Assembly (NCBI GenBank): GCA_046563655.1 | Contig: CM102286.1 | Coordinates: 3,968,001-4,032,000, forward strand | DNA from: Yuukianura sp. NJ FZ-2021 | Lineage: Eukaryota | Direction of reading: 5' to 3' | DNA length: 64,000 nucleotides | Shown: positions 1-50,422 of the stretch, piece by piece | Layout: each line of letters starts with the position of its first letter | How positions within the stretch are numbered: the first letter of the stretch is position 1 | Position numbers and translations under genes: made by a program | The notes under the pieces: generated by a model | Databases searched by the model: none | What the model was told of the DNA's origin: nothing | Seen by the model: the letters and a program-made list of their open reading frames with translations, nothing else

Positions 1-18
1 TTGTGTTTTTTTTTAAAG

Positions 19-789
19 AAATACAATGTGGAAGTGCCGAGATACGCGATTGCCAAAGGTCAATGTGGAAATGGAATTGATTCAAGAATGCTAATAACTT
101 GGGGCAACAGTTTTCGTTTGAATTGGCACTTCCAGAAGGTAAATTTTCAAAAGTTAAATATAACTCCAACAATAAAATAGTGCATTAATATTTTCCATTT
201 TACAAGTCACGCGTCAGTGACGCCTGGTATGTTGACCAAATCATCTTCAGCTATAACACTGCAGAGAAGCTGTTCAATGAAGCTGAAGGTCTGAAAGCAA
301 TACAAACTATTGGTCGACTAGTCTCCAAAAACTGTGAATTTTTATGAAATTTTTAGGCGCTGGGGAAGTTCATGAAATTCGTTCTCCAGACTCATTTACA
401 CTCTGGCTTACACCGACTGGACGGGCGTATAGTTGCAGCATAACGCAGGAAATCAAACTTCTGGACATGAAGAAACATCGACGAGTAACCATCGTGCTCA
501 AACAAATCAAAATCCAACCTTTTGGAACAATCACGCGTCATCAATATGGAGAAGGTAGAGCATTCTTCCACATAAACTCCTAAATTTTTGGAAAAAGTGT
601 AAAGAAATATTGATTTGAAGATTTTATTCCATAGCATTCGTGTGTCCAGAAGAAGCTGGAAGAAGGAATGAAACGGTGCCAATTGCGGTGGGAAGTACTT
701 TAGCAATTGTTGTTCTTCTCACGATCGGAATTTATGCTGGATATCGCTATTTCAAAGTCAAGAAAATTGAATACGATACAATGGAATAG
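19..789 (+). CDS. Lysosome-associated membrane glycoprotein 5-like (LAMP family), 3' exons; 5' part lies outside the window
   Basis: Spliced exons (~19-138, ~207-288, ~358-553, ~635-789) give ...TPTGRAYSCS...IQPFG...FVCPEE...TVPIAVGSTLAIVVLLTIGIYAGYRYFKVKKIEYDTME*. This is a LAMP lumenal domain end, one TM helix and a short tail with a YxxPhi (YDTM) sorting motif. Confidence 0.75.
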
Positions 790-2284
790 TGGCACTTTTA
801 GATTTTGAATGAAGCATTTATGCTCGTGCTTAAATTTAGAATGCGTGTGGATTTCAAAATTAGCTTTACACTTATAGCAACTAGCAAGTTAGCTTAACAA
901 TTTCAAATTATTTCAAAACTTCGTTATTACTCCAATTCCAAGTCTTCCAAATTTTTCAAAGTAACTTTAACTTGATAGTCAGTACAAAACGTGTTAAGCA
1001 TATCTTTAGTGTGATTTACAAAATACATCATGTAAATAAACTGTCTTTGACGTTTGTGTGAATCATGGTTGTTTTTTCCACGTTTTTTTTTTCAGATTTC
1101 GAAATTTTCCAGATTACTAACAATTTGTCATCGCTCGGAGAAGAGCAACAACAAAAACTTAAATTACGTAAGACACAATTAAAACTCAAATCACCACATT
1201 GTTCAGGTTTTATTGAATAAAATTACAAACTGGAACACGGCGGTTGACTGCAGGCGTTTTTATGTTCTTTAAAAAAATCAAAACCAAAATCCGAAAATGA
1301 AGCAGTTGACCTCGAATTTTAAAATTTTCCTTTCTATTTGCCCTATGAAATCACTCCATTTGACACTTTTGTACTTCCACACTTTTACACAGCACATGGC
1401 AACACGAACAGGTTTTTGAAAAAAAAATTTTTTAGGCGTACTAAACTAGTCGGTGAGTTTCTTTTGAAATATAAACGCCGCTTAGTCGTTTATTTTCGAT
1501 TTCTTTAAATGAAAAAAAAAATCTTTTCAACGAAAATTAAGTAAAGTTGTCCAGATTTTAAGTTTTTTTAAACAACAAAAGTCGTAAAATGACTACGTCT
1601 TTTTTAAGTCCGGTTCACCTAAGCTACGTCTTTTGTCAAAAAAAATTACTCGTGGCTAAAAAAAAACTGAAAGCGACATCATTTGCTTTTGCCAACATTT
1701 TCGAAATTTCAATTTGTTAGCTATGCAAAACTTGTTAGTCAAGATTTTATCGATCTCTCTCATTAAGTTGCAATTAAAACTGCAATTTTTGTTGATTCTC
1801 TTTCACTAATTAAAGTTTGACCCACTGTAGGTCAGGGTTAAGATGATTTACCTCAACCTATTGTTCATGTTTCAACGGTTTACCGCTACTAATAGCTTTT
1901 AGCGGTTCGGACGACATCCGTTGAGCGATAACCATCATGATTTGCGGTTTATGTCTAAAGGTAGCTTAAGTTTCCACTGCAAATGCGCTTGTGGTGAGGT
2001 GGGATTTGTTTTAATCACTTGTTTTAGTCGATCATCCCTCAAATCTTCCGTTAAGAGATACAAAGATTTCCTCCCACGAGTGTTAATTACTGCACAAGAT
2101 CAGAGATTAAGCCAAAGTAGTTCGTATTGAATTTCCCTCAGTTGAGCTCAATTAAAAATGCAGGATTCAATTGTTCCAATTAAAACCATTGGTATATAAT
2201 CGGCGCCTCAAACCTTGAGAAGACGTTAGTGCAATTACTACTTCACTGGAAGGAACACTAAAAGTCCAATCGCTAGAACCCATA

Positions 2285-2785
2285 ATGGCATACAAGATTG
2301 TTGCAATTGTCGTCGTTAGCTGTTTCGTCAGCTTCCAAGTAGCGCAAGCAGCCATTGACAAAGTCCAGCAGTTCAAGGCATACGACGCTGACGGAGATGG
2401 AAAATGGAGTCGGAAGGAGGCTGACTACGTTCTGTACATGAAGAACAACGCGGGAATTTTGGAAGGAAAGGGCTTTGACGGATTGGACAAGAACAATGAC
2501 GGCGGAGTTGACGAGGATGAGTACAACCAATCAAAATTGAAGACATTCCTTCAACAACAGGGAGCTCCTAGCAGATTTACGGATGTCGATACAGATGATG
2601 ACGAGTATGTCATGGTCATGGAGTACATCAAGGCTGTATCCAACGCTTCCAAGAAGAAGATGGACACGATCTTTGCCCAGTCCGATACTGACCACGATCG
2701 AGCCATTTCTCAAAGTGAATTTAGTGGTAGCGCTGCGCTGGTTGATTCCGTCTGTCTCTTTCCATGTGACGCGGGTGATGTATAA
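2285..2785 (+). CDS. Secreted EF-hand calcium-binding protein (intronless, 166 aa)
   Basis: Hydrophobic signal peptide (ending AQA-A) and four EF-hand-like loops: DADGDGKWSRKE, DKNNDGGVDEDE, DTDDDEYVMVME, DTDHDRAISQSE. A TATA-like TATATAA lies upstream at ~2193. Confidence 0.8.
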   Translation: MAYKIVAIVVVSCFVSFQVAQAAIDKVQQFKAYDADGDGKWSRKEADYVLYMKNNAGILEGKGFDGLDKNNDGGVDEDEYNQSKLKTFLQQQGAPSRFTDVDTDDDEYVMVMEYIKAVSNASKKKMDTIFAQSDTDHDRAISQSEFSGSAALVDSVCLFPCDAGDV

Positions 2786-3787
2786 ATCAAATTCAATTGA
2801 AACCTTGTTAAAATAAATCAAATTGTTTTTCCAAAATTAATGGAATGGTAATAAAAAAAAAGTTTCTTTTTAAATTCAATTTTGTTTTGAAAAACTGAGG
2901 TAGTAAAATCACTTATTTCGGTAAGCGGGATTCTCTCATCAGTCATCATAACATTCCGGTTTCGTATTTTGTTCAAACAGGAATTCAAAAACTCTCAGAC
3001 AATTGCGAATGACTGATTGCATAATCGTCGCGGTTGCGGTGCAAAATTTCGACCTTTGACTTAAACCTCTATTGCGGCACAGTAATTTTCGATACGTCAT
3101 CATTACTTGTTTTTGTACATAAAAAGTTCATTATGTAATTTAGGGGTAACCTAAACCTACACGATATCAGACCGTTCATTTCAAGTCTATTGAATCCTGT
3201 TGCAAAAATAATATAAAGTTAGATTTCAAACATTTTAAAAATTACGATTTTTAAATTACTGAAGAAAAAAATAACCAGATTTGATTAAACTTATGGTAGA
3301 TTTCATTTAATCGTGTTAAAGTCGAGTCAATTATAATTTCATCATAATTTCTGCAATTTTGGGAACTTTTAAGGAAGAGTAGTACTAAGAATGGAGTGAG
3401 ATCATCGATTACGTTTTCTCTCCTGAGAGATCACTAGGAAGATAAAGCTTATACCAACATTTAGTTTGGTACACTAAATAATTTTTGAATTACGTACTGG
3501 ACAACATTATGTTGTCTACATACCAGACGCTAATAGTAAATAGTAGCAGGAAGAAGATTCTCTAATATGAGCATTAGCCAGCACCTTGGTTATAAGTTTG
3601 GGAAAAAGCAAGGGATGGATTTAAATCGCAAAGGCCAGTGAAGTGGATTACACTTCTGTTCATCCTAGTTAGTTGATTGACTCAGTCAATAATAACAATC
3701 CATCGGCACTATGGGTTAAATGGATCAAAAACGCATGGCCTGAGTTAGAGTTTGAAGATGTCAAATTGACATTGTCAATCCTCACGT

Positions 3788-5969
3788 TTATGAGGAATGA
3801 ACGCAAGAAAAGTGTTGTGGAATATGCCGTGGTTGTGGCGGAACAATGAAGTCATCTACGAATTTGTTTGCCAGCTTCAGTGCTTTAGTGAATCTGTTCA
3901 CTTTACTCACTTTCGCTTGGTATAAGTTCCCACGTAGTGATCCCTTCCCTTCCAGTATTTTGCAAACTTCCTCTCCGAGACACGTAATCAACTCAACGCT
4001 AATAATATTCTCACCGCCGCGCAGAAGTAGGTGGCCCACACTTTGTTCCGTTTTCAAGATCACGAGGATTATGTTATCCTTCTACAAAACCAAAAAGAGA
4101 AATATTTAAACATGCATTCATTTCAAAGTATTTCTGAAGTTTCTAACCGTGTCGCCCAACTCCCTTAGCAGAGCCATCCCAAAGTCCAAGTCGACATCTT
4201 CCCTGGAAAATTCAAATCCCGGTGAATAATTTTTTTTAGGAAACTTCAATTTATTTTTAAGTAGAAGAATTTGCGGGGTTAAAAATCGTTTTTGCATTAT
4301 CTTACCTGTGATAAAAGAACAGAACGCCATTTTTGGACATTCCATTCGTATCCAGAGAATGAAAGCGGTTTGCCTCCAAAGATGCAAGGTCTTTACTGAG
4401 CGTTTGACAACTCTGGGAACATTTTAGCAAAACATTTTATCAAAATATTTCACGGAAGTAGTGTAAGTCGACAGTTCACGTTACCTTCTTGCTTTGCTTT
4501 AGGGCGTTGGAGAGCTTCTCGGCACTAGCAACTAAATCAGCACTGGAGGTCCTGCAATCATTATTTTTTAATTTTTACACCGAGTTTTTAAAGTTCTGAA
4601 CTATTTTAACTTACTGCAATACTTTCAGTAGCTTCTGCTCACGAAGAAATGAATCTGAAATTCTGCGAAGAACACGGTCGCCGCAGATAAAATGAAGCAA
4701 AGCCTTCCCTTTCCGTTTCTCGAAAAACAGAAGTTTGATCATCTTTTGTAACAAACGATTTTGTATAAAAAATAGTTCTTGAATGAAAGTTGGACTTCAC
4801 AAGGATTTGTATGGTTTTAAGAATATTGTAAAGTACCTGGAGCTGAGACAGAGATCCAACGTGCGTACCGCAACAGACGTTAGCATCGATCCCGTCGATC
4901 GAAATGATGCGAATGTCGTTCTGGACGTCGTCAGGCAATCCTCGACTGCGGACCTGCATATAAGCCTCTGATGATGTTGATGTTATTTCAAGTTATGACG
5001 TAATCTTACCATTTTCCAAGACGGCGAATCCAAATTAACCACTTCAACAGTGACAACGTTATTTTTACGAATTTTTTCGTTAACCTTTTCTTCCAAAGCA
5101 TGTATTTGCTCTTGTTGGAACTCTTGAGTATCTGCAAATAATCAGTGTACTTAGACCTTTTATAAAAACAGTTCGCATTTTAAGCAACATTACCTAATTC
5201 AATGTAAGAATCCTCTGACCCAAGCCACCAAGACGTTGTAGAAAATCCATAAAGGCCATCAGCCATGGCAGTAATTAAATGTTGAGCTATTCAGAAATCA
5301 TTTAAATTTATCACAGTGACCGCCAACAACGGGTATCCAGATCTGATTTCTTACCAGAGTGTTGTTGCATATGATCGAATCGACGTTTCCAGTCTACATG
5401 AACTATTGCCGTTTCCCCAGGTTTGAGAGGCAGCGTAGCGGCATTCGATTTTTTATATCTCAGGAAATGTATTGCATTTTTTCCTCTCCGAATCACTCGT
5501 ACAACGGGAACGCCGTTAATCGTACCACGGTCATCTGGCTGTAATTTAAGCATTAATTCTATGTAAACATGATTTTATCCGAATTTGGGTTTACTAAAAT
5601 ACTAAAAACCATGTATCCGGCTTGACATTAAAAATTTACCTGACCACCTCCTTCTGGGAAAAGGACGGTGTCTTCCAGTATAACTTCGACGAGTCCCTCT
5701 TCATCGTTTCGAGGGAAATCGAGAATGCCATGTTTCTTGGCAGCGATGATTGCTTCGTCCTCTTCAAGCCATTTTACTTTGCAGATAACGGTTTCCAACT
5801 AAATTAAAAAAAAACATGAATCTCCAACTCGCAGCGCTTGATCGATATAAGGACAAGGTTTCTTATAAGACGTCTAAGAAGCCGTTTCATTCACCTAAGA
5901 ATTAATTAAATAGGTGCAACCGAATAAACTTACTTGCTGCAGAAACGAATCTCGCTGACATTTGAACAT
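3788..5969 (-). CDS. AARSD1: Alanyl-tRNA editing protein Aarsd1 (AlaX), multi-exon
   Basis: Starts MFKCQRDSFLQQ. Contains LEDTVLFPEGGGQPDDRGTING, VDWKRRFDHMQQHS (HxxxH), and IDANVCCGTHV (CxxxH) zinc editing motifs. GT-AG introns separate the ORF pieces. Confidence 0.93.
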
Positions 5970-7061
5970 AATGGATGACCCAATACAGGAACTTTTGCGT
6001 ACTTCGTTAAAATCAAGTCAATAGTGAAGGGCAAAGTTGCATAGAGTGAAAAAGGTGGCTGTGGCACGACAAGCCCTTGTCCTTGACCTGATTTCCTTCT
6101 TCCTGTACTATCGTATTACGATTACGATTCGTATCGTATCTCCGTGTTCCCCGAATCCAGTAAGGAATAAGGAAACCCGTATCTTATACACGAAGTATAT
6201 ACCCGATTTGCTCCCGTGTCGTGCCCGTCCCGTGTTCCGTGTATTGTTTATTGCAAAAATCAAACATAGTAGACAGGAAGGCGGCTCCTGTGCCATTTGC
6301 AGAGGCGTGCATCAGCAGCGCGGTTTAAAACAAATCGGAACAAAGGAACGGTAAACGGATACCCCGCCCAACTAACGCTTTATTCGTGCTTACGAAATAA
6401 AACCCCACAAATATGTAGTTAGTAATTTACAATTTTGGAAATAATTCTTTGTAAAAAATTAAAGTTACGACTGTTACGCTTAGTGTAGGACTTCTACCTG
6501 CAGATATAGTTTGAAAAACTCGTAGCAGAAAGTTTTGTTAGTGATAAATCTAGTGTCATATTTTGAATCTTGATATCTAATTAAACTTTAAACCTGTAAA
6601 TATGACAGCAAGATAAATATACGACTACGACACAAGATGTTTCGTGTAAATGAAATGTAAGGTTCAAAAGCCTCAACGCATGCCATACAGTCACCAATAG
6701 CCATCCATTCTTGAACCGAAATTTTAAATTTCAATGACAATAACGAAGGGGTTAAAGTTGCGGTGATACCGACCGGACGCGTAGTACCGAGTTTTGGCTT
6801 TGCGCATTTGTGTTCATACAGATTCAAAGTTGAGGGAGGGAATTCAATTGTTTTTAAGGAGCTCATAAAATTTTTTCAGCTGACTGCTGAGTTGCCTCTC
6901 TCTCTCGGTTGCCGAGATATTCAAGTTAAATTAGTTAATCGCTTTAATTCATTGATAGTAGCCAATATTCTTGCTCCTTGCCTTACAATTAGTCGTATTG
7001 AATTTTGTAGTTCGAGCCAGGAAAGTGGTAGTACCAGAGCGGAACAGAAACTTGACGCAAG

Positions 7062-7901
7062 ATGGCTGGAAAGCGGAAACCCGGAACCGAACTTAACCAT
7101 GACAATTGGGATCAAGAAGAGCCGCCTGAAGAGGCAGGAGAATTTCAGAGGGCAGCAAATGACACCTTGCAAGAACGAAAAATTCTTCGTCCCAGACGAC
7201 GACTGGTAAATTTTGAACACAAAACAAGCCAAGTTGGAACTAACCTAGGATTACGTTGATCAAATTTTCATCATGAAAATATTCTGGCTTATCCTGTTCT
7301 TATTAGGCGAAACCTGCTGGTACGACCTCAGCTACACCGTTCTCAGGATTTAGCTTAACTCCGAGCAATTCTACTTCTGCGGCGACCACGACGCCGTCAT
7401 CGACATCCCTCTTCGCTAACTTCAAGTTCTCTGTACCATCAAACACCTCCGCAGCCAGCACTGTACCACTTGCAGAATCAAATCCTCCAACAGAAGGTAA
7501 ACCGCTAATTGGGTTTCAATTTTTAACGTCTCTTCTGTGACATTTGTATTGAAGCTCATGTGCGTTGTTTGTTCACATTTCTTGTTGCAGAACCTGAAAC
7601 CGAACAAGTCAACTCTGAACTTTGTTCCGCTACTCATAAAGACAATGCTGACCTAACCAACTCCGAGGAACACTCATTGAATGAAGCGGTTACGAAGAAT
7701 GGAAAAGAGGTAAAGACGCATCTTAGCGCGACAAACGAAGAGTCTACGGCACTGGAACCAGACCAGGATTCAAATGGCCACGTTGAAGTTAACGTGGCCA
7801 ATACAAGTCCATCTGGTGCCGACACACCCACGGGTCAAAACGGTGCAGGGGATCAACTTCCCGCAAAAACATCAGAGGAAACGGCACCTCCTGAAAATTA
7901 G
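7062..7901 (+). CDS. Nup50-like protein with N-terminal importin-alpha-binding domain and S/T/F-rich linker but no C-terminal Ran-binding domain; 3 exons
   Basis: Exon 1 MAGKRKPGTELNHDNWDQEEPPEEAGEFQRAANDTLQERKILRPRRRL matches the NUP50 N-terminal domain. Exon 2 (~7307-7496) has PFSGFSL and LFANFKF. Exon 3 (~7591-7901) is acidic/low-complexity and ends at TAG 7899-7901. Confidence 0.75.
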
Positions 7902-8106
7902 CGTCAAACTGTACATGAACTGAAGGAGGATACGAATGAAAACGGTGCCGGCACCACGTCGGTTTAGAAATCTATTTGATTGATTTGATTATCCATCTCA
8001 CCTACTTTACATTTACATCACACATAACATAACCTTGGAAAATTCTAAAATTCAATAACAATTTTTTATTTTGTTAAAGGTCTTCATTGTTCATGGAATG
8101 ACTAAT

Positions 8107-9045
8107 TTAGTATCGAATTTGGGGGAAGTCTCGTTTAGCCTTTCTTAGACTCTGTTCATCTTCATCTTCCCATCCTAAGGCGTTTATTGCTGTCTCTTTC
8201 AAATCGGTGCCTGCAGCTCCACTGAAGAAATGAACAAACTGTCCTACATCCATTGACCCTTGATATCTCTTGCCCGATTTCGGCCAGTGGCTGGCAAGCA
8301 ACTTGAAGAATTTGCCAAGAAGAGCTGTACGTCCATGCTCTTCGTAGATTGGCAACCACCAATCACGGAGCCAGTAACTATAACAGCAGAAGGTGAACAA
8401 ACTAAAACTTCAAAACATAAACACAATTTCAGAACTACTTATGACTTACACGATATTTTTGGCTGTAGCAGAATCCACTGGCTCGTTGATCTTGGAGCGT
8501 TTCCACTCTTCCGCATCAGACTCCAGCCCCGAATGCAGGAAAATGTCGTAGATGGCAATTTGTGTCCAGCCTTTGTTACCCCAAACGCTAGAAGCAGGAG
8601 ACCCCTCCATTCCGTTGTTGCCTGCTTCGATAATACTGGAGATGGAGTTGACTTGGAAGTCAAACAACATGTCCTGGTTCGGTCGTTTCTTGTCTGGACG
8701 GTCGTACATGTTGCCAGCTCTGACGCTGCCAGGACTAATGTCCATGTAGATGCTGACATCTTTTGCACTTACGCTTGTGGCCATACCGCCTTCTCCTGCC
8801 GTTGCCTGGAAGGTACCCTCCAGACGACCACCATTACGACCTCCAAATGGACCGAAGTGCTGTCTTGCGTGCTTCCACGACTTTGAATACAGTGAGAAAA
8901 TCCAGTTTGTTCTGCTTCTGTCTATCATTGTATTGAAGCGGATGACGGCATTGTCATCCTTGTACACCTCTCGGACTTCGCGTTGCGCAAAGCAACAGGC
9001 TTCGAATACCGCAACAACAAAAACCAAAATTCGTAACGCAGTCAT
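8107..9045 (-). CDS. Secreted protein of a bacterial/fungal zincin-like family; HExxH apparently lost; 2 exons
   Basis: Signal peptide. ORFs 8446-9045 and 8107-8400 are joined by a short intron. Motifs GSPASSVWGNKGWTQIAIYDI, YWLRDWWLPIYEEHG and GQFVHFFSGAAGTDLK recall a secreted microbial family (from memory, not searched). Confidence 0.7.
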
Positions 9046-10473: not shown

Positions 10474-11025
10474 CTAATGCGACTTGGCAGCCTCCAACTC
10501 CAAATCGTTTCTCAATTTTGTAAGTAATTCGCCAAGCAGATTCTTGCCTTGCCATGTCTTCCTTGACAAAGCACGCGGGTCAGTCGAGCGTAAGCCAATT
10601 CCATAAATTTTGTCACCTGGACTCGCTTCAACCAATGTCGTTCCTTGCGTTGCGTTTAGTTTCTCCAGTAGCTCAGGATTCTGCGTAAACTTCAGTTTGT
10701 TCCCTTCATAAACGATTTTTTGATTGTTTTGCTTCCAAACGTCGAGATCAAAATTCTTAACTTCTCGTCCCAACTTCTTCACATATGAAGGATTATAATC
10801 CGCGTTCCGGATTCGTTCGGCAACGGCGTAGTCTTTGAATAGTATGGCTTTATTTAGCATCATCCATTGTTCGGCGCAATTAAAGACATATTCGGTTTTG
10901 TCTTCGGAAAACAACGGAACTCCTTTGAACGTGCATGGATAAAACTGAGAAAACGGAGATTTCGCCGTATAAAAAAATGTAAAACGTTCTGGGACGGAAG
11001 TCTTAGTGCTAGATGAGGAATCCAT
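10474..11025 (-). CDS. NADAR/YbiA-family N-glycosidase (183 aa, intronless CDS)
   Basis: Motifs FSQFY, FNCAEQWMMLNKAILFKD, KKLGREVKNFD, KFTQN, LVEASPGDKIYGIG, WQGKNLLGELLTKLR. Confidence 0.92.
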   Translation of the reverse strand: MDSSSSTKTSVPERFTFFYTAKSPFSQFYPCTFKGVPLFSEDKTEYVFNCAEQWMMLNKAILFKDYAVAERIRNADYNPSYVKKLGREVKNFDLDVWKQNNQKIVYEGNKLKFTQNPELLEKLNATQGTTLVEASPGDKIYGIGLRSTDPRALSRKTWQGKNLLGELLTKLRNDLELEAAKSH

Positions 11026-11386
11026 ACTTAGGTTCTTTGCTTTCCTACCGCTATTATTTGTAATACTCCTGGCGATCCTGTGACATCAGTTGTTTTTTAA
11101 TTGAAGTCGTATTGGTATTTCGGGGAAAAAAATACTACGTAGTTTAATTTCTCACCTGTTCACCTGTAATTTATCCGCAATAACTCACCTTAAACAACAG
11201 TGTCAATGTCATTTGCGTAATTGGAAAGACGACTGTGACCATAACTTCGTTTGAACGTTGACTTTTGTTTCGATTTTATCTGTTCTCTCTCATTACGAAT
11301 GTAAAACGTTTTATTCGCATTGATGAAATCATGCTTCGTTTCGTCACACCCACACAACACACCGGAGAAAAATTAGAGGAGTGGTA

Positions 11387-11601
11387 AGGTTTAACGATAG
11401 CCGTTGTAGCCGCATAGTGTTTCGGCCACCTTGCATGGATTGCATATTACAATAGATGGTGACAGATGAGTGGGAACATCTGTCGCTTTTACCAAACCAA
11501 GCGTAACGTAAAACGCCAACTTAAGCAGCCGGATGGCGCAGCGACCCCATTGTAGCCGCAAGTGGCTACACCGTATGGCTACACTAATGTTCAGTAAACC
11601 T
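11387..11601. mobile_element. MITE-like element (~215 bp), TA-flanked
   Basis: ta|AGGTTTAACG ... CAGTAAACCT|ta with internal TGTAGCC/GGCTACA inverted motifs. It shares termini and motifs with the element at 42555-42776. Confidence 0.5.
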
Positions 11602-12577
11602 TATTTCAACCAAAGAATCTTCGAAATGTCAAATTTTAAACAAAAAAAGACTGCCGCGCAAAACTTTCACCAGACGCTCTGGTAATCTTCTTGCAACCTC
11701 GGTTTTGAAACTTTCTTCTAACAGTTTTTGTAAAAAATTTCCGTCCCATGCTTTCTTGGTCCGCTTAATTACTCTTCGTCGTTGTCTTGTTTGTTTTATA
11801 TGGACCATCAATTTGTCCAATTCGCTAGTAAAATAAGTACCAATTGTTAAGCAAATCAGTCGAAAAAGAAAAACAAAAGTTACCCAGAATTAGGAGGAAC
11901 TGTGACTCTGTCTTCCCAAAAATTAAACCATTGTTGTCGTTACCCAACAAATTATTGTTTTTGTACGACTAACTTGTGCATGTGTATACATTTCTAGTTT
12001 GTTTTAGTTTAGCTAGAATCGGAATAATTTTGAACAATTATTCAACTGCATCTTGTATTTTTGTGTTCAGATCGAGCATCGACGGAGATAATTTTGTACC
12101 TAAACATCATCATAAATTGAAGTAAACATAAAACAGTCCAACTTCATATAAAGTGTGTGAATAAAACGCTAAAATCATAATCAAATCAAATCCATGTACA
12201 ATTCTTTAAATTGCGTTCGTTTGAACATAGTGAGTTAGTTTGAGTTCAAACTTTGAACAGAGTTTAGAGGGTGTCATATCCTGTGACATGACTTTGGAAG
12301 AGATCTCATGTCCTCTGATTGAATTAGATGACTTAATGAGGAAGTATTTTGCCTAATTAGGAAGAGAGCAAGTGGTTCATCCTGGTCCAGCGAGTCTCAA
12401 TGAGGAAGCTGTGAATTAAGGCTGATCTGAGGCCGTGACATGGGAGATTCAGTGGATCTCAGCATCCCTGGTCCATATGCGCATGGCCTGAGTGAGTCGA
12501 GGGATGGTTGGAGAAAGTTCCCGAGAAAAGGAGGTGCTGGACCATTTTGAAGTTGGAGCCTGAGCAGCGGACTTGCA

Positions 12578-15500
12578 ATGAACAAGCGACTCCTGGAAAT
12601 GTTCTGTTACCATTGTCCGGGCCCAGCAACGCTCTCCACGCGCCTACCACCGCTCGACTACCCACACGCACCTACGGCCACGTTTGCTCACCACCCTTGT
12701 AAGTACCGAAACAAATTTTACGTACGTTTTTAAACTGTTTTACAACATTTTTTTAGGTTTTAATTTTATTTTAATTAGATTTTAATTTTATAAAGCTACT
12801 TTTCTTGTTTTATTTGGTCAATAATTATTTATAACGTAGAAAATTAAAGTTAACCCAGATTGAGGAAATTATGAAGCGAAGGTTTCACAAAAATTTGAGC
12901 CACGCTTCAAAATTTAGGCTCAAGGCTGATTTTTGATTGGTTGTATTCCTAAAGTAAACTGCGTAACTGCTCTTATTGTCACTCTTATTTAAAAACAAAA
13001 AATTTTTCAAATGGTTACAAAAAAGAGCTCAATTAAACGAAACTTTTATACCTAAAAGTCAATGGTTTGGGTGGAGAACGTACCCCCCCTCCCCCCCTTT
13101 TCTTTTGCACTTTTGGTTTTTCTTTTTGCACTTTTGTGCAACTTTTTATATTTCGTTTTTTCCCATGTTCACTGTATGTTTAAGAGTTTAATTAGTTTTT
13201 AAAAATAATTTTAAAAAATATTTTGCGGTTTTGTGGTTTGAGTCCCACCTGAAAAATCGTCTCTTCTTTGCACTTTTATGCAACTACTTTTTAGTTTTTT
13301 TTTATAGCTTGGGCTCATTTTAAACTTGGCATTTAATTTGGTTTTTAATTTTTTTTGTGTTTGAAAATACTACTTTCCCGGAAGCTATCTCTCTCGGAAA
13401 CTTTTTAAATAGTAAATTCTCAAAAATATTTCTTTGTAAACATCAGGTTCCTTTCTAAATATCTTTCGAAAATATTTTGAGATGACACAAGACCTAACCT
13501 ACGGTTCGTATTGCACGTTTGCGGTTTTTTAATTGCCAATTACTTCCGTGTCGCGATCGCTAATTAGAATGCACGAAAAAACTTACGACAAGTTCAAGCA
13601 ATGAAAACTTTTGACCTTGTGAATTGATTGACTCGTGTACAAAATACAAACTTATTTGCCATACAAACCTAATTTGCAAACACAAGGGCATTTGTGGGAG
13701 GTCTGCAGTCTAGCTTTTCGCCGAGTGAATAACGTTTCACTCACCGCAAAAGCATTGCGTAACCATTTCAATGCCGCAATTTGACTAGTCAGCGTTTCCG
13801 TCTAGTTGCTTATGATCCGTGGAGTGTTGGTACGCAAGTTTATACGACACCCAATGCTGATTTTGGTATTTTTCAAAATCACAAATTTCACCGACTAATT
13901 TGTGCCGCTAGACGTCAACCTCGGTTACTATTGGTCCGCTAGTCCTTCAAAACTACTAGTCGTTTTGAATGGGCAGGGAAATAGCTTTATCGCAAGTCAA
14001 CTGCCCAAGGACGTTCAAATCCCTCGAGTTTGACGACAAAGTGCGTCAACCTGGCTTCTGATTGGCCGACGTGTCGTTCCCAGAGGGCGTGGCTAGTACA
14101 ATACTGAAATTTGATTGGTCAAAATCCCAGCCCGTGTATCAATTTCAGCCATTTGGCGTCCATCTCGCTTTTGATTGGTCGACTTGTTGTTGCCCCAGAG
14201 GGCTTTGCCAGTAAAATACTGAAATTTGCTTGGTAAAAATCCCAACCTGTAAACCAATTTCAGCCATTTGGCGTCCATCTCGCTTCTGATTGGTCGACGA
14301 GTCGTTGCATCAGTGGGCGTGGCCAGTACATTGCTGCAATTTGATTGGTCAAAATCCCAAGCCCTTTACCAATTTTCAGCCAATGGGCGTGCAGCTCGCT
14401 TCTGATTGGTCGACATGACGTTCAAAAATGGCCTAGTCCCACCAATGGGAGTGGCTGGTCGCAAAATGTTTTAAACTCCTCTGCCATTTTTTTCTAGAAA
14501 GTGCATTAAAATAAACTCGTGGAATCATAAAAAGTGGTCTCGAGACATCATTTGTTGCTGAACCCTGGCGTATATACAGCGTGCTGTGTGCGCCAGAACA
14601 TTATAAACTGGCCAGTTTGGAAAACATTTAATCTTCACTGCTTTACCAAACCATACTCATTTGTAGTTTGACGAGCAACGGGAAAGGACGTGCTGGCAAA
14701 GCAGGAAGCAAAAGTAACCTCAAGGGTGTTTTTGACTGAGAGCGACACTGGTACAATGGATTCTGCACAAGTTACGCCAAAGAATAGCAGGAAAACGAAA
14801 AACGAGGATGGAAATCAGGTAATGGGGTTCCTCTCAAATGAAGAATTGCAAGTTCTGGAATCGGGTAATCGAAGAAACGCGAGAGTTGAGGATGACGATT
14901 CTGACGGACGGTCCAAGTTACCTCGCAAGTTGCAAAAAACGTCGCTGCAACATGGAAGAATGTCGCCATTTGAACAGCATATCCCACACCAAATGTCGCC
15001 AAGTGACACAGAAACACGCAAAACATCGAAAAAATCACGCCGCAAAGGGTCAAAGTCTATGAAATTGACGCGAAAACGAAAAAAAGGCGGAAGAAAAGAG
15101 GAGAGAATCGAATCCCCACGCTGTAGTGGAGCAGAATCTGATACAGATTCAACAAAAAAGAACAAAAAACATCAAAAAGTCACCCAAACTGAGGTTGCAG
15201 GAAAGAAATCAACTAGAAAAACTTCAAAAAGGAAACCAAAAAGGGGGCAAACTGGACTTAAGTATGCTACTTCGTACAAGAATGGTGCAAATGGTAGCCT
15301 GCTTCTGCGGTGAAACCACTTGCCTTTACACATTTGTCATTAAGTATAGTAGAAACTAAAGTCTCCCCACCTTTTGACTACTATAAATTAGCATTATTAG
15401 CCAGTTTGGCGGCCAGTCGGCATGCGAAAGCCGAGGTGACAACACCTCTCCGCCAAAAAATTGTGCAAAATTGTACGTTTAGTGAGCAGAGTTGTCTTCA

Positions 15501-18500
15501 AACGGTCGCCAATCGGTACCAAAAAGCCAAATTTAATACAGTTTTCTGCCAAAAAGTTTGACATTTGCATCCAAACGGTCGCCAGTCGGCATCGGCACCT
15601 CTTATCGACCTCATCTCTCGACGTACTTTAGACAACAATTGGCTCTACATTGTTGAGGTTCAGCGATTTTTAGCAAATTAAAATACCCCAACAATATCTC
15701 ACAGACTTTACCTAAAACGAGGCCAACTAACCACGGAAATGGAGCTTACCGTTCCAATGCACTCGAAGCTGGTGGACACAAATGCCAAATTGGACTTGTT
15801 TTCCATGCCAGATACCGAAGTTTCTTGCTTGCTGGACAATTATCTCAAAGTAGAGTCGTACTATGCAACAAAAGGAAATGAAAATCCGATTCATTTTTCG
15901 TTTTGGCAAATGGCCTACCTGGATTTGTCGGATTCGTTTTTCAGATTTGTAGTTTCCATTCGAAAAAAAGATGGCTCGGCACTCGGTGACACAGACAAGG
16001 TTGCTCCGGAAAATCTGTTCTTTCACACATTTATCGAAGATTTTAAAGTCGTTGTCAACAACACGCAAGTCGTAGCGCAGGGGCCAAGAGCATACCCGTA
16101 CGAGGCTTGGATATTTACTCAACTTCAGCAAGGGATTGGTTCGAAAAGCAGTACATTGTCCAGGGAAATTTATTTTCCCGGCAATGTTATGGACAACTTT
16201 GACGACACAAACCCAAGCTTCAAAGCTCGACTTGAGCTGGCAAAGAAAAGTAATCAATTTGAGATGATTGGACGCCCGATGCTTGGAATTTTCACTTCGC
16301 CGCGACTTTTCCCGCCAGGAACACGGTTCAATTTTCAAATTCAACGGACCAACCCAGAGTTTTGCTTGTGCGGACCATCCTCTACAACTGAATACAAGGT
16401 TGAAGTGGAGTGTGCAGACTTTTACGTTCGCCAATATCGTCTAAATGAAAAGTTGACTACACAACTTCGCACCGCATTTGCAAAAAAGAAAATGGCATTG
16501 TATTCTTTTGACAACGCCGTCAAGTTCTCTACGTATGTACCCGTTGGGGTCACCGAATTTGAAATTCCAAAAATTATGCCTACGGCAATTCGGCCAAAGC
16601 TCCTCTGCATTGCAATTACGACAAGCGAAGTCGTCAATGGTAAACTCGAAAAGTCACCGTTTAATTTCAAACCACATGGAATCAAAAACATGAAGCTCAA
16701 ATTCGAAGGAAAGGGAGTTGTTTTTGAGGAAATGAACTTTGAAAACAAAAATTACATGCTAGCCTACAACAACATGTGCAAGTTAATTTCACATGGAACC
16801 GACGGAAACGATATTACGTATGAGCAATTTGTAAAGGGCAACGCGATTTTTGTGTTTGACACTCAAAACTTGCGATCAGACACGTTCAATCCTGGAAAAA
16901 TTGGACAATTTGCATTGGGCCTTAGCTTTGACGAAAAGACAAAGGAAGAGCTAATGGTTATCACCATTGCCGTGGAAGACGTTACACTTGAAATTGGAGA
17001 AGGCGGACTAACGCGTTTCGCATCTACGAAAAGCATTTTTTTCAAGTAATTTTTTTCAACTTAAAATTTCAAAGCGTTCCTTCATATGTATTCCACTCAC
17101 AATACTTTATACAATTCATAGTCTTGTGTAATATATGGTATGAGCTTGAAAATAAAAACCAGCATCATTAAAGCTAAATAAAACCAATAGTCTAACTTTG
17201 GATTTATTTAAAACTAGTTTTTAAGCGGATCGGTGACGCGGCATGTACTTCTGAACCACATTATGTTGGCTTTTTGTGGACCGGCTGTGGTTTGCATCTC
17301 ATTTTTTTATGATTCCACGAGTTTATTTTATTGCACTTTCTAGAAAAAAATGGCAGAGGAGTTTAAAACATTTTGCGACCAGCTACTCCCATTGGTGGGA
17401 CTAGGCCATTTTTGAACGTCATGTCGACCAATCAGAAGCGAGCTGCACGCCCATTGGCTGAAAATTGGTAAAGGGCTTGGGATTTTGACCAATCAAATTG
17501 CAGCAATGTACTGGCCACGCCCACTGATGCAACGACTCGTCGACCAATCAGAAGCGAGATGGACGCCAAATGGCTGAAATTGGTTTACAGGTTGGGATTT
17601 TTACCAAGCAAATTTCAGTATTTTACTGGCAAAGCCCTCTGGGGCAACAACAAGTCGACCAATCAAAAGCGAGATGGACGCCAAATGGCTGAAATTGATA
17701 CACGGGCTGGGATTTTGACCAATCAAATTTCAGTATTGTACTAGCCACGCCCTCTGGGAACGACACGTCGGCCAATCAGAAGCCAGGTTGACGCACTTTG
17801 TCGTCAAACTCGAGGGATTTGAACGTCCTTGGGCAGTTGACTTGCGATAAAGCTATTTCCCTGCCCATTCAAAACGACTAGTAGTTTTGAAGGACTAGCG
17901 GACCAATAGTAACCGAGGTTGACGTCTAGCGGCACAAATTAGTCGGTGAAATTTGTGATTTTGAAAAATACCAAAATCAGCATTGGGTGTCGTATAAACT
18001 TGCGTACCAACACTCCACGGATCATAAGCAACTAGACGGAAACGCTGACTAGTCAAATTGAAATGGTTACGCAATGCTTTTGCGGTGAGTGAAACGTTAT
18101 TCACTCGGCGAAAAGCTAGACTGCAGACCTCCCACAAATGCCCTTGTGTTTGCAAATTAGGTTTGTATGGCAAATAAGTTTGTATTTTGTACACGAGTCA
18201 ATCAATTCACAAGGTCAAAAGTTTTCATTGCTTGAACTTGTCGTAAGTTTTTTCGTGCATTCTAATTAGCGATCGCGACACGGAAGTAATTGGCAATTAA
18301 AAAACCGCAAACGTGCAATACGAACCGTAGGTTAGGTCTTGTGTCATCTCAAAATATTTTCGAAAGATATTTAGAAAGGAACCTGATGTTTACAAAGAAA
18401 TATTTTTGAGAATTTACTATTTAAAAAGTTTCCGAGAGAGATAGCTTCCGGGAAAGTACTATTTTCAAACACAAAAAAAATTAAAAACCAAATTAAATGC

Positions 18501-21500
18501 CAAGTTTAAAATGAGCCCAAGCTATAAAAAAAAACTAAAAAGTAGTTGCATAAAAGTGCAAAGAAGAGACGATTTTTCAGGTGGGACTCAAACCACAAAA
18601 CCGCAAAATATTTTTTAAAATTATTTTTAAAAACTAATTAAACTCTTAAACATACAGTGAACATGGGAAAAAACGAAATATAAAAAGTTGCACAAAAGTG
18701 CAAAAAGAAAAACCAAAAGTGCAAAAGAAAAGGGGGGGAGGGGGGGTACGTTCTCCACCCAAACCATTGACTCCTAAAGTACGACGCGAAAATATTGTGG
18801 AAAAATGTTGAAATTGTTTATAAAAATATGAATCAAAATTTAAAAATTCATGAATATTTGTAGATCCGTCCTATGGTTATGCCCATGGAGATTCGGTGAC
18901 AGAAGATTCCTTTGTCAGAAGAAAACAACGTAGGAACCGCACGACATTTACACTTCAACAGGTAAGCACTCCAATTGTTTCATACCAAATCTATAAAAAT
19001 TTTATGTAAATGTAAATTTTGAATCTATAAATAATTTTTTAGAATGTTGATGAGCTGCATTAGTTTAAACAATGGTATTGGTCAAGTTTAATACCTGTAC
19101 TTTACAAAATTGGACATTGTAGGCCAGCAGATTAACAATTGTTGAAAAGATGACCTTACTCTGACCATTTACAGCTAAATTTTTTAATTATCAATTGAGT
19201 GTCAACAACCCTAGTTTGAAATTTAGAAATGTTGAAATTAGCAACAGTTAGAAACTCAAAACTGCTGCTTGTGTCATAAAAATTATTTTAAAGTGCCGTT
19301 TACTCTTGTAGCTTGAGGAACTGGAGACTGCCTTCGCGTCAACACACTACCCGGACGTTTTTACCCGGGAGGATCTTGCTCTGAAGATCAATCTCACTGA
19401 AGCACGAGTCCAGGTAAGAGAAAGCATTTTGTAACGTGATTTGCCAATTGGGGGGTGGAATCGCTCCTCCTCCAATGATAGATTCTGAATGTTAAGGGAT
19501 AGGACGTAGAATGAGTCCCAAGGTGACCTCTGGGTTATTTTGCCAAATGAAAAGTAATGACATGGCCTTAAGGACCCTCTCAACCTCTCACCAAATCCAA
19601 TTCAGACCATCCGCTTAAGCCTCTTGATAGACTGACCAAATCCCTCTGACCAAGGCCCCCCTTATTTCATAAATAATTCCAACGCCCTAACCAAACCCGG
19701 TAAATAAATGTGTATCCACGTGCACAAATTCATTACGTGTTGCATTCGCACGTAGTAACTAAGCTTTAGTTCTTAAAAAAGTTGTTTTCAATTTTACTCA
19801 AAAGTTATTTCACTTTTAAACTCATTTTTAATTTTAATTTTAAGCACAGGGCGTATTTTCCGTTGTTTTGAGAGAGTGAAAATGCAAGCGACCGACGTCT
19901 GAATCTTGTAGCCCGGAAGGAATTTCGTGTTCTGCTACTTTTTTTTAGAAAAATTTTTTTGAAGTCAAAAATTTCATTTTTGGAACGAAAACGTCAATAA
20001 ATTTTTCTTTTCTACAAACTGTTCTTTTAACATGAAATAAGTTCTCAGCAAATGCTAATTTTGTCTTGCTTTTGTTGCGCTATTTGATCGGGTATTAAAG
20101 TCGCTACTCTGAAATTGATTTTGTAAAAATTCTTAAACTTCTGAGAAAACGCAAACCTAATTTCAAATTCGCTAACATTGTTTCTAGAATTGAAAAAAAC
20201 GTTAAACTCAAAGTCTTCTTGAATGTCTTGCAAACAAAATGATTCTTGGATAGAGTATACTCGAAGTCTGAAGATTCAGTAAACTTTGAGACTTTTAGTT
20301 CTTAAATGAATTTCAATTACGCTACTACGGATGAAGACTCCAGCTCGAGCCAAAGTTCCAGGTTCCATGCCATTGTGTCAATTGAATTGTATCAACTGCC
20401 ATTGCATCAACTGAATTGTGTCAATTCGAATTGTATCAACGCTCAATTGTATCAACGGCTACTTGTATCAACCAACGTAACCTAACCTAACCTAAGCTAA
20501 ATTAAGCATTACACTCGTTGATACAATTAGTCGTTGATACAATTGGCCAGTTGATACAATTCAAATTGACACAATTCAGTTGATGCAATGGCAGTTGATA
20601 CAATTCAATTGATACAATGGCGTGCTACCAAGTTCCAAGAGAACAGAAAGTTTTCCAAATTGGATTGTAGATCATAATTCGAATTCTGTGGTCAGCCCTA
20701 GGAAAAGGGCCCTCCTCCCCCATATCCTATCAAAAGAATTTCCTGTTCTGTATCGAAGGAAGTGATCGTTCCTAGGGCTGTTGAGAATTCTAGAATTCTA
20801 GCAGGACTTTCACTTTGGCCAAAGTTACTTTCTTCGTCGGCTGACGCGTGCTCCCGGGACGGATCTCTTTGTTTCTGCTGTCGGAAGAAAGTAGAAGCTT
20901 TTTTGGTTGGGGTCCGCAGACAGAGAGACCGGATTGGGATTTCTGCTGATGGGATTAACGTCAGTCAAGGAACCACCGCCGCCGCGGTTCCCAACCTCCT
21001 TTTCAAAAGGAACAGCCGCCGTGGCAGCATTTCAGAGGGATCCGTCCGGGGAAGCGGGATGTTTTGAATACTTGAGTACTCCTAACGTCACTGTCACTCA
21101 CTCTAACTTTTTATTCAATTTGATTGTGAGCACAGGTCTGGTTCCAAAATAGACGAGCCAAGTGGAGGAAGGCGGAGAGGTTGAAGGAGGATCATGCAAA
21201 GGCCAAAGCAAAGGACCTCGGTGACGACCCAGAAGATGACGATGTGGATGTCCTGGACAAGGAGACGGAAGATGAAGAAGATGATGGTCCCAAGACAGAA
21301 CTACTCAAATCTACGCGCCCCAACTCCAATGCCAGCAGTACTAATGACAAAAGAGAGCTAACCAGTTTACCATCACCTTCCCCAGTTGATGGGTTAGTTC
21401 TTCAAATTAAAAAAAAATTGAACTTCTTATGACTGAATTTCCAACTCAGTCGTAAAAATTTTTCAAAATTTTGACAGGTTCCGGCCAACTACGGAAATTA

Positions 21501-36773: not shown

Positions 36774-38661
36774 TTAGAAAAAGCATTTTCGACATATCCA
36801 AATCAAGGTCACTGGAATCACGATGTTGATAGCAGCAAGTACAACGAAAACGAAGAAGTAGATGTCCACATGCTCTCTCACCCAGTACGACTGGTCAAGG
36901 TCCATTTGCTTCAAAGGTGAAAGGTCATCGTGTCGCAACACAAATTCAACTGCGTCAACTGCAGTATTTACAGGACTTGGCCGGTCCCTGAACAGTTCTG
37001 ATCGCATCATGATGTTCTCTTTGTACCTTCATATAATTGGAAAGATTAGTAACTGTTGTGCGACTAAAATCATAAATTCCTTCGAATCTTACTTCGGGTT
37101 ATTTAAAATTTCAAATACAGCGCCATCAAGATCTGCCTGCGTCATCGTAACGATTTCTAACCGCACACCAATTTCATGTGCTTGAACACGGTAAGCATGG
37201 TAGTCTTGATCGCCGAACAGTGGTACTGCTATAATAGGAATTCCATTGTATGTTGCTTCCAGCATTCCGTTCATCCCGCAGTGCGACATAAACCCTCGAA
37301 CAGATTTTTCGCCTGAAATCGAACACATAAAATCCAGAGACAATTCATATTTTTGAAATTTTCCAAAACAAAAAAAAACGTACGCAGAATCTGTGCCTGG
37401 GGAAGCCACTTTTCGGACAGTAAATTGTTGGGGTTATTCGCTGCGAATAGTTAAAAATACATAAAAATTTTTGAATTGACTAAAATATTGTTTTTAAATT
37501 AATAGCATTTACGATTAAGTGGTCCGTTCCATCTCCAAATGAAGCCGACTTTGTTAAATTTATTCATCATGTTGAAAAACATTTTCAAATACTTCTCAGG
37601 AAGTTCGTTGACCTCAAGTGTGGATCCAAAAGAAATCAGAATCACTCCGTCTTCGAATGAATCCATGAATTTTTTGAAATGCTAGAAACAAATTCAATTA
37701 ACATTTGAATGCTCAAATTAAGGCGCTTCAAAATCGAAATTTACTTTAGGCAAATCTCCTTCAGGCTCCCAGACTTGCATTCCTCCAATCTGTAAAAATC
37801 AAAACTCATAAATTTTTGTGATTACGTTCTTATGTAGTAAACATAAAAAGCACATTTTTTCCAGCTTACGTTCACGAACTGTGGAGGAAGTGCTCGCGCA
37901 TGGTCAAATGAGTAGTGACTGTTGACCAGAACCAGTGAAGCATTTCGATTCAATTCAGTTAAAGTAGGAGCGTCGCTTAATGCAAATCGCTTTTTGTAAA
38001 TTTCCAGTAAACCTTGCTCCAATTTTTTCGAACTGTGGTAAGTCATTGTAGCATAAAAGTGAACTTTCAGACGGTCCCAGAAGTTCATGGGGTAGTGCAC
38101 GTATGAAACAAAGTCTGGAATCCAAGATGTCTGCAACTGAAGTCCGAAGGCGCCATGAAACCATGGCACAACAGTGGTGGAGTCAAAAATTACATACTTG
38201 GATCCAAGATGGTGAGCTATGTAGAAAGAACAGTCTCCGAAAATTGCATCGATGATAATCAAATCAAAATTTCCATTTTCCAGGATATTTGTAAATGCTG
38301 GATCATCCTTGGAGTTCAACAGCACCCGACAGAGGTCAAGTACTGATTGGTCGTAATTTGTAAATATTGTAATCTTCCCTTCTTCTCGGTCCTTGATTTT
38401 ATCGTAGTAGTAGTTCTTACGCATAGATTCTGCTATAAAAGTTGGAGCAAGGTCAACGACCTTTGTACTTGGTTTAGGCTGTTTTGGTGATGATGAGATG
38501 AAGGTCACGTTGTGACCTTTGTCACTTAAAGCCAATGCTAGTGGCCATATTGATAACTTGTGAGAGTAGTTCCCACCACCAAAGAGGAATAAGATGTTGG
38601 CACTGTTTACGTTTTGAAACAAGATTAGTAAAACAACAAACGCGCCAGGTCGGAGTAACAT
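36774..38661 (-). CDS. UDP-glucuronosyl/glucosyltransferase (copy A), 6 exons
   Basis: Signal peptide, ANILFL..NYSH, ISFGS, KWLPQAQIL, FMSHCGMNGMLEATYNGIPIIAVPLFGDQ signature, C-terminal TM helix and RKCFF tail. Confidence 0.93.
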
Positions 38662-39399
38662 ATTCGAAATTTTGAAAGTTTTCTTCACTTATTTGGAATT
38701 TCTCTAATCACTTTTACATTTTACACTTTTTTAGTTTTAATTTGCAACTGGAAGTAGTATAACATTAATGTAGTATTTTATCTATTGATACGAAACTGCA
38801 CTAGCCTTTGTTACATTCTGGATTGGCCAATTTTTTTTTGCTGGAATCAGTGCAATTATACCTCTCCGCTTCAGTGATTACTAGCTAAATTCGATTATAA
38901 AATGCGAGTAGTGTTTCACAGTGTCGACACTATAACTATAGTTAATGGAACACTAAAGGCATTTTTTCATTTAGTTTCAACTGTTTCACTAAATAATTTG
39001 TGAAAAATTTTTAAGCACTTCACAATAACTTGCTTTTTGCCTCACGCGTAAAGTAGTTTTTTTTTTTACAATTATTACTGAAACGTACCACTCTCGATGT
39101 TGAGCTCAATCGTCTATTAGTGTGTATTGACCTCTGATGATAGATTAAAAAATATTTGTCCGACCATGCTTCATATCTACTGTTGTTGCCCACTTTGAGG
39201 CATTAGTGACGCCTCGAGTAAAGGAAGTGGTGAATTCATTGTTTCGACTTTGTAACTTTTAGTCAAGGTTGGCACTTGTTTAAAAAACGATTCGACTGCT
39301 TTGAGAAGATTTTAATACCGCGATTCTCTAAACCAAAAAAGAAAGCTACTTTCTTCTTTATTGAGTCTTGTCACAAAATTATTCAGAATAGTCAATTGT

Positions 39400-50043: not shown

Positions 50044-50422
50044 ACCTCCTTTTACAATAACCCGCCCAAAAATTCTTTCAGCACATTGTAAATATCTAGG
50101 AGTCTAAAACGTTTTCAAGTAGTCTTATTTTCGAATAAACTTTGAATGAATCATTTAACTAAAATCACGCGATCCAACGGAAAGCTTCTGAATTGATAAC
50201 CTTAGGATGATTGAATGGTGTCATAAGTGTCTTCTTTATCATTGACTTTTGACCTGTTAAGTTTCTGAGACACTCTTCGTCATGCTATACTTACAGTAGA
50301 CATGCGGTTCGTATTACATTTGCTAAAATTAGAAACTAGTAAAAACTATGATGCAGTTTCAAGTGTTCCGTTTAGCAGGCAACTTTTCTGATAGCAATAG
50401 AGGTATTCAGGTCAAATAGTAA

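Follow-up and report, generated by a model that had tools for sequence, protein, structure and literature searches.

We describe here a 5,716-bp element that occupies positions 13057-18772 of a 64,000-nt stretch of the genome of Yuukianura sp. NJ FZ-2021 (GenBank assembly GCA_046563655.1, contig CM102286.1, positions 3,968,001 to 4,032,000 of the forward strand; the window in what follows). It has the ends of a Maverick/Polinton and carries two genes, one for a predicted major capsid protein (MCP) and one for a small basic protein. The view to which we incline, if only by a little, is that it belongs to a persistent lineage of non-autonomous Mavericks/Polintons that keeps structural genes, a 5.7-kb 'mini-Maverick'. 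A persistent lineage is favored because a second locus, L001, repeats the layout of the element at 50% MCP identity.

The element has sharp edges, both in an inverted-repeat search and on direct reading. Together they confirmed the structure that an earlier sequence-only reading of the window had reported: the length, a flanking CCTAAA, AG...CT ends, terminal inverted repeats (TIRs) of about 1.47 kb, a 2.77-kb core and two open reading frames (ORFs). The flanking hexamer is a perfect 6-bp target-site duplication (TSD); arithmetically, chance would bring 6 nt into agreement at fixed positions about once in 4,096 cases. The inverted repeats were found as two blocks, 13057-13772 with 18057-18772 (716 nt) and 13777-14533 with 17304-18060 (757 nt), and within each block the arms are 100% identical. 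Aligned as a single pair over 1,477 columns, the arms show 99.26% identity, and the sole difference between them is 8 additional nt in the left TIR, at about 13773-13780. Together the TIRs amount to 51.5% of the element and enclose a core of 2,770 bp (14534-17303). The termini are AGT...ACT, with one AGT and one ACT (end sequences in Table 1). The core holds an ORF of 185 codons (ORF1) and one of 436 codons, both intact and on the same strand.

The capsid gene, its basic neighbor and the missing genes

The 436-aa protein had been called capsid-like on a guess from its sequence. On its predicted structure, it is a double jelly-roll (DJR) MCP. AlphaFold2 modeled it with a pLDDT of 90.7 and a pTM of 0.90 from a 97-row alignment. 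The best Foldseek matches of the model in the PDB are the MCPs of an iridovirus, PBCV-1, Sputnik and mavirus (E 1e-15 to 1e-12), and VIA-align gave Z scores of 28.1 for PBCV-1 (363 residues, root-mean-square deviation 3.2), 24.3 for Sputnik, 22.2 for mavirus and 16-19 for adenovirus hexons. BFVD ranks first a protein of Cotesia sesamiae Mombasa bracovirus that is uncharacterised (E 3.6e-22); next come the LO7 hexons of adomaviruses and the MCPs of giant viruses. The earlier reading had allowed that the ORF might turn out not to be a DJR capsid; the predicted fold is that of one.

The sequence has many relatives, few of them named. A phmmer search of 1.84 billion representatives returned 2,994 clusters at E <=0.001, 1,207 at 1e-10 and 49 at 1e-30, most of them of proteins of 420-450 aa. 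The named family members in the profile search were two proteins entered as "uncharacterized protein F54H12.2(-like)", from Ciona and from a spider; the name F54H12.2 was not found in the literature searched. Against Pfam, PHROGs and the PDB the MCP sequence gave nothing significant, phage tblastn gave no match, and profile A2 gave nothing significant against the PDB (Melbournevirus MCP, E 0.75). Two Pfam candidates, DUF7159 and Enterotoxin_b (E 0.21), were rejected as sub-threshold chance matches, and so were cholera-toxin-B-like proteins from the phmmer search of the PDB (E 0.13 or worse). The Pfam family PF21738 (DJR-like_dom) does not match the window protein at E up to 1. It does match 6 of the 97 aligned relatives (best E 2.2e-05) and is found on 15% of the members of one ESM Atlas neighbor cluster; in the literature it occurs as an adomavirus hexon match (PMC13696692).

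Judged by sequence, the protein falls within the MCP family of Mavericks/Polintons (PY; F54H12.2-like), because its relatives are F54H12.2-like and because genes of the PX type lie next to the MCP genes of two related loci, L003 and L002 (see below). Two entries in Table S1 of PMC4028283 fit the BFVD match and the name F54H12.2, respectively: the record of Cotesia sesamiae Mombasa bracovirus is listed with a Polinton whose MCP is fragmented, and C. elegans with a Polinton that has an MCP. They are leads rather than tests, and a motif search across the supplements of the same paper gave no match.

In a tree made by a quick method, in which the midpoint root serves for drawing only, the window MCP sits in a clade of seven rows (100% SH-aLRT support) that has a long stem and is nested within the large family. 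P0006 and P0007 are the sisters of this clade, and the named F54H12.2-like proteins are in the other half of the tree. Comparison of three MCPs, that of the window and those of relatives, gave pN of 0.30-0.34 against pS of 0.76-0.81, the latter saturated, in all three pairs. The MCP thus appears to have been held by purifying selection through a long divergence between lineages. One member of the clade, P0004 (541 aa), has an acidic, internally repeated insertion of about 100 aa in mid-MCP, between two matched stretches; this may be a decorated surface loop or an artefact of the gene model.

ORF1 encodes a basic protein of 185 aa (pI 10.6, K+R 26%). The C-terminal 101 aa are more basic still (pI 11.2, K+R 35%), and the protein contains the stretches RKRKK and KRKPKR. 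It belongs to no Pfam or PHROG family and has no similarity to any named core protein. Basic ORFs occupy the equivalent place in all three related loci, L001, L002 and L003. Vertebrate Mavericks have the gene order mCP-PW-MCP, that is, minor capsid protein, PW and major capsid protein (PMC8097293), and the putative equivalence of ORF1 to PW is one of position and composition only. We regard ORF1 as a candidate DNA-condensing core protein. The description of the element as 'capsid-only' is slightly inexact, the basic gene at the PW position being retained as well.

Pfam was run on 66 of the 80 frames of at least 35 aa in the left TIR and core; the 14 frames left out lie inside the MCP ORF. None of the 66 scored above a curated cut-off. 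There was no match to rve integrase, pPolB polymerase, FtsK-type packaging ATPase, adenain-like protease or penton, so that, as far as Pfam can tell, the element is free of remnants of other Maverick genes, as had been claimed. Polymerase and rve integrase were equally without a Pfam match among the 72 window ORFs of at least 95 aa. The PX penton proteins of L002 and L003 did not match the element in tblastn, and profile A2 had a single match among the 303 window frames of at least 60 aa, the MCP ORF itself. The window holds no second copy of the element or of its TIR, and no other cargo between such TIRs. Since the element has no replication or integration gene, any mobility requires functions supplied in trans, as the earlier reading had it.

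Recent insertion, further copies and related loci

Five public runs from two studies cover part of the stretch, none of them on record as RNA; four were compared with the window at 90% likeness. In run X1, a 12.6-kb contig (record 1) aligns with 11864-13023 and then with 18856-20352; 100 letters separate the two, and about 110 would remain at an empty site. The contig runs from flank to flank and represents a haplotype, or a close relative, devoid of the element; counting gaps, its divergence from the window flanks is about 4-9%. Both flanks are continuous in it with no element between, which makes the insertion polymorphic or specific to a lineage. In sum, integration of the element as a whole and in recent time, proposed earlier from sequence, is supported by the perfect TSD, the near-identical TIRs and the contig without the element.

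The same contig, compared over 11144-13023 and 18856-20772, also differs from the window at 11427-11575, where 140 letters have replaced a segment of 149 nt. The divergence of the flanks points to a very polymorphic population or species pair.

There is more than one copy of the element, and probably there are many in organism B. The element contigs listed for organism A differ by about 1-2.5% from the window copy, and in organism B two variant contigs cover 14961-15229. The depths in organism B, which are rough and are not copy numbers, are 80-142 for core contigs and 6.5-8.5 for flank contigs. Bins in the outer arms are lower than core bins in organism B, so most copies there are without these outer arms at 90% likeness. 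In run X2 one contig (record 7, 14435-16662, 31 differences) crosses the junction of left arm and core and passes from ORF1 into the MCP gene, and another (record 8) continues over 16633-17152.

A scan of metagenome contigs yielded two related loci, L001 and L002, both in the clade of the window MCP. L001 (3,944 nt) has inverted arms at about 3-454 and 3365-3795 that are 84-94% complementary and contain tandem repeats of their own. Between them are an ORF of 132 aa (pI 10.5; 1272-1670) and a 436-aa MCP gene (1828-3138), both intact. The layout is that of the window element: inverted repeats, a basic ORF and a 436-aa MCP. In L002 (1,218 nt), P0166, a 147-aa protein represented by its C-terminal end, is followed by a basic ORF of 92 aa and then by the start of an MCP gene, whose product is 71% identical to P0001 across 129 aa and belongs to the same tight clade. 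The basic ORFs of L001 and L002 match weakly at their C-terminal ends (E 0.008, or 1e-05 without composition correction).

The third locus, L003 (positions 1-8358), was found with profile A4 and is the sole find among prokaryote contigs. It is filed under a metagenome-assembled genome of Breoghania sp. and almost certainly represents eukaryotic (host-DNA) contamination of the bacterial bin. Profile A1 found no related locus in prokaryote genome contigs, and none was found in scans of IMG/VR. L003 contains a PX-like ORF of 252 aa (272-1030), an ORF of 148 aa with a pI of 11.6 (1032-1478) and, from 1486, a frameshifted MCP gene that is 54% identical in its best segment to F54H12.2-like proteins. 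By eye, the start of the 252-aa ORF resembles the alignment of Polinton PX (penton) proteins in supplement 3 of PMC4028283. The order PX, basic, MCP in L003 appears to match the vertebrate order given above. There is no inverted repeat in L003 fit to be a TIR, and its other ORFs have no Pfam match; it is a decayed Maverick virion block, which shows gene order and not a complete Maverick.

P0166 (L002, 3-209) matches the PX ORF of L003 at the latter's N- and C-terminal ends (BLASTP E 5e-04 and 0.008), the middle of the 252-aa protein being absent from it. It also matches, by eye, the published PX alignment (PMC4028283, supplement 3), and an ESM Atlas lead points the same way; its single-sequence fold has a pLDDT of 32. 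We take P0166, on these sequence matches, to be a shortened penton-like protein. The cluster members listed for P0001-P0007 are singletons only, on contigs of 2.6-6 kb.

Table 1. Positions (in the window) of the element, its repeats, its genes and its putative signals.
Feature	Positions	Strand	Basis and remarks
Left TSD copy, CCTAAA	13051..13056		Direct reading; same as 18773-18778
Left TIR, 1,477 nt, first letters AGTCAATGG	13057..14533		Inverted-repeat search; 8 nt longer than right arm
Tandem repeat, 115 bp x 3.3, inner left TIR	14043..14422		81% matches, score 497
TATATA motif, just inside core, ~180 nt 5' of ORF1 start	14572..14577	+	Read by eye; putative function
ORF1, basic 185-aa protein	14756..15313	+	ORF list, intact
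TATAAAT motif, ~350 nt 5' of MCP start	15382..15388	+	Pattern scan; putative function
Predicted 436-aa DJR MCP, Maverick/Polinton PY ('F54H12.2-like') family	15739..17049	+	AlphaFold2, Foldseek, VIA-align, family search
Two AATAAA polyadenylation-signal motifs (17151, 17177), 100-130 nt past MCP stop	17151..17182	+	Putative function
Right TIR, 1,469 nt, last letters CCATTGACT	17304..18772		Inverted-repeat search
Mirrored 115-bp tandem repeat inside right TIR	17415-17794		Tandem-repeat search
Right TSD copy, CCTAAA	18773..18778		Direct reading

Each unit of the 115-bp tandem repeat contains two GATTGGTC motifs (seen by eye), which we take to be CCAAT-box-like. The repeat is a candidate promoter or enhancer directed into the core. 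Its mirror image in the right TIR, if a promoter, would drive antisense transcription into the MCP gene, an arrangement that could feed small-RNA silencing. An Rfam scan of 12800-19000 found no family.

The insertion neighborhood is ordinary animal gene space. The 72 window ORFs gave host-type families only in Pfam: EF-hand, NADAR, WKF, UDP-glycosyltransferases, 3-beta-HSD, GNAT, SLC26/STAS and aromatic amino-acid lyase. A single-exon NADAR ORF lies at 10477-11085 (-), UDP-glycosyltransferase exons or genes in tandem at 37092-41498 (-), two GNAT acetyltransferase ORFs at 49630-51293 (+), an SLC26/STAS transporter at 57351-59923 (+) and aromatic amino-acid lyase exons at 60700-62674 (-). Downstream of the element is a 269-bp element (20361-20629) that resembles a MITE (a miniature transposable element of the inverted-repeat kind). 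Its TIRs, of 80 nt, are 94% complementary, it contains TTGTATCAAC subrepeats in large number, and its TSD, AAGTTCCA, is of 8 bp; with the TSD it spans 20353-20637. Contigs of X1, X2 and X3 omit exactly 277 nt of this stretch, so that its insertion too is polymorphic, and bin depths of several hundred to about 20,000 indicate a high-copy family.

Weighing the explanations

If the element does represent a persistent mini-Maverick lineage, it would have kept ends that a Maverick-type integrase and, presumably, a protein-primed polymerase recognize. Of the virus genes it would have kept only one unbroken piece of the virion block, made up of the basic protein of the PW position and the DJR MCP. 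Integration and replication would then be supplied in trans by a full-length Maverick of the same host. The retained genes may be in use in a satellite-like manner, supplying or co-assembling the element's own shell and core protein around its small genome.

A broader proposal, which we put forward tentatively and as the less probable outcome, is that animal Mavericks have satellites: long-lived mini-elements of 4-6 kb that have discarded all enzymes and kept the shell and the basic core protein. Some members would have a shortened penton in addition. Their genes would be kept under selection, and the lineage would spread by means of the polymerase, the integrase and the packaging and maturation machinery of a helper Maverick.

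The main alternative is an ordinary, functionless deletion derivative of a full-length Maverick, too young for its ORFs to have decayed. The capsid gene would play no part, and the derivative would spread, if at all, like any non-autonomous DNA transposon. The near-identical TIRs and the perfect TSD mean youth, so intact ORFs by themselves prove nothing. Moreover, 96% of vertebrate Maverick loci are defective (PMC8097293), Repbase lists non-autonomous Polintons, some of which have capsid genes (PMC4028283, Table S1), and cargo differs among the relatives, as in the penton gene of L002. However, two clean deletions or some special event would be needed to leave a PW-MCP slice from the interior between complete TIRs and no debris to its left or right, and the same slice is found between inverted repeats in L001, where half of the MCP residues differ. 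The arms of L001 are only 84-94% alike, yet both of its ORFs are intact. The distance from the MCP stop to the right arm is also similar in the two, 254 nt in the window and 226 nt in L001. A one-off deletion thus explains the window copy alone and explains L001 poorly, because the clean slice would be needed twice, or once long ago followed by persistence. The preference of the sequence-only reading for something other than a random one-off deletion accordingly gains support from L001. As only two whole examples exist, we still allow the deletion derivative a real, if lesser, chance.

Several further points weigh against a persistent lineage. The argument from conserved layout is built on the window element and one whole relative, L001, whose termini are cut by the contig ends, so that its TSD and end motif fall outside the contig. 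None of the basic ORFs of L001, L002 and L003 can be aligned with ORF1. The shortened penton upstream in L002 indicates that cargo varies and that the penton may have been lost repeatedly. The selection signal in the MCP could date from autonomous ancestors rather than from mini-elements. The window element has a single AGT at its end and not the tandem (AGT)2 or (AG)3 of vertebrate Mavericks; other animals may differ in this respect. Finally, copies and other cargo were looked for in the 64-kb window and in public contigs, and a near-identical full-length parent may exist elsewhere.

A different role for the retained genes is that of a decoy or defense element, in which the MCP, alone or together with the basic protein, would poison the assembly of a Maverick, resident or incoming, or compete with it. 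It would be kept for this interference, to the advantage of the host or of the element itself. Purifying selection on an MCP in an element where no partner virion genes (ATPase, protease, penton) were found would suit this idea, and integrated small DJR viruses have been proposed to provide protists with inducible antiviral defense (preprint 10.64898/2026.10.13.758929). But with full transposon ends, a polymorphic insertion and multiple copies, the element looks selfish and not domesticated, and we consider a decoy improbable.

The earlier reading had also entertained a segment of a multipartite Maverick-like virus, with polymerase, integrase, ATPase, protease or penton on other segments that share the same TIRs. 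The long TIRs, half of the element, would be in keeping with this, and, as L002 shows, the neighbors of related MCP genes may differ. Nevertheless, no second TIR copy or alternative cargo turned up in the window, no other cargo was evident among the contigs listed for the four runs, and TIR bins showed no clear excess over core bins in four runs, which is weak evidence, the depths being rough (X1, TIR about 48-65 and core 25-58; X2, TIR about 513-1,219 and core 615; X3, outer left arm 3-53 and core 140-250). Nor did any of the 24 loose ends listed, of which 200 more exist, fall at the boundary of TIR and core. Multipartite organization thus found no support, and we rate it as very improbable.

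Least credible of all is an assembly artefact, in which the assembler would have collapsed a longer Maverick or joined a fold-back. Inverted repeats that are perfect and 1.47 kb long do make assembly difficult, but contigs of the public runs, which may include the window's own source sample, pass from the left TIR into the core and from ORF1 into the MCP gene, the TSD is perfect, and L001 shows the same layout independently, with imperfect arms.

Relation to known elements and significance

With autonomous Mavericks/Polintons the element shares a 6-bp TSD, long TIRs, AG(T)...(A)CT ends, a DJR MCP that appears to be of the same family and a basic ORF directly upstream of it. In intact vertebrate Mavericks the TSDs are of 6 bp, the TIRs measure 46-1,447 bp and the end motifs are of the AGT/ACT or AG/CT type (PMC8097293), so that arms of 1,477 and 1,469 nt sit at the top of the range. 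The tandem ends of these Mavericks, (AGT)2//(ACT)2 or (AG)3//(CT)3, are thought to serve the jumping-back step of protein-primed replication (PMC8097293). The differences are in size, 5,716 bp as against 12,723-24,620 bp for intact vertebrate Mavericks (PMC8097293), in the share of the TIRs, which here make up half of the element, and in gene content, since no pPolB, integrase, ATPase, protease or penton was found. Under the definition of a Polinton as having polymerase plus integrase (PMC5499653), the element does not qualify as a Polinton proper; its ends and its capsid gene are those of a Maverick.

It should be noted that non-autonomous Polintons, some of them with capsid genes, are already known. 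The suffix N in Repbase names presumably marks non-autonomous families. Three such entries from Nematostella, Polinton-N1, -N1A and -N1B_NV, measure 14.4-15.0 kb and have MCP, penton and ATPase (PMC4028283, Table S1). Known here from the table entries, they resemble the window element in being non-autonomous and in retaining an MCP; in contrast to it, they have about three times the length and retain penton and ATPase as well. We found no description in the literature of an element of about 5 kb reduced to an MCP and a basic protein; Repbase itself was outside that search and could hold one. In the survey of PMC4028283 elements of less than 10 kb were discarded as incomplete, and that of PMC8097293 required integrase plus polymerase. 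Capsid-only elements would be invisible to surveys of this kind, because these demand polymerase and integrase or discard whatever is shorter than 10 kb.

Outside the Mavericks, there are partial parallels. Satellite tobacco necrosis virus, capsid-forming phage-inducible chromosomal islands and virophages all have a capsid protein of their own and depend on a helper for replication. In function the element would by analogy come closest to satellite viruses and capsid-encoding satellites; like satellite viruses, it has a capsid gene and no replication machinery. Its predicted MCP fold is shared with the virophages Sputnik and mavirus (Z scores given above); virophages retain ATPase, protease, penton and usually replication genes. 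Transpovirons, to our knowledge, encode no capsid protein, and in this they differ from the element, which encodes a capsid protein and little else. By analogy they may still be compared with it, since these linear DNAs of about 7 kb, which ride on giant viruses (PMC5499653), are likewise small, have long TIRs and depend on a larger virus-like element, as the mini-Maverick would.

Another parallel is in gene order. The late block of adenoviruses runs penton, basic core protein, hexon and adenain. In adomaviruses the late block LO5-LO8 likewise encodes a penton, a small basic core protein, a hexon and adenain (PMC13696692). The order of penton-like gene, basic ORF and DJR MCP in L002 and L003 is similar, and the window element keeps the basic-ORF and MCP part of it. 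Unlike the late blocks, it has no protease gene after the MCP.

In closing, we return to what such an element may say about Mavericks themselves. Maverick/Polinton virions have never been observed, according to PMC8097293. A non-autonomous element has no obvious reason to hold an intact capsid gene unless capsids are actually made. Should the element be a young deletion product, it would be only a clean example of a non-autonomous Polinton. If the satellite reading is true, the persistence of such elements would be indirect evidence that Mavericks still form particles in animals. A conserved and recently mobile mini-element with an MCP and a core-like protein would offer a testable handle on particle formation by animal Mavericks and on the dynamics of helper and satellite.

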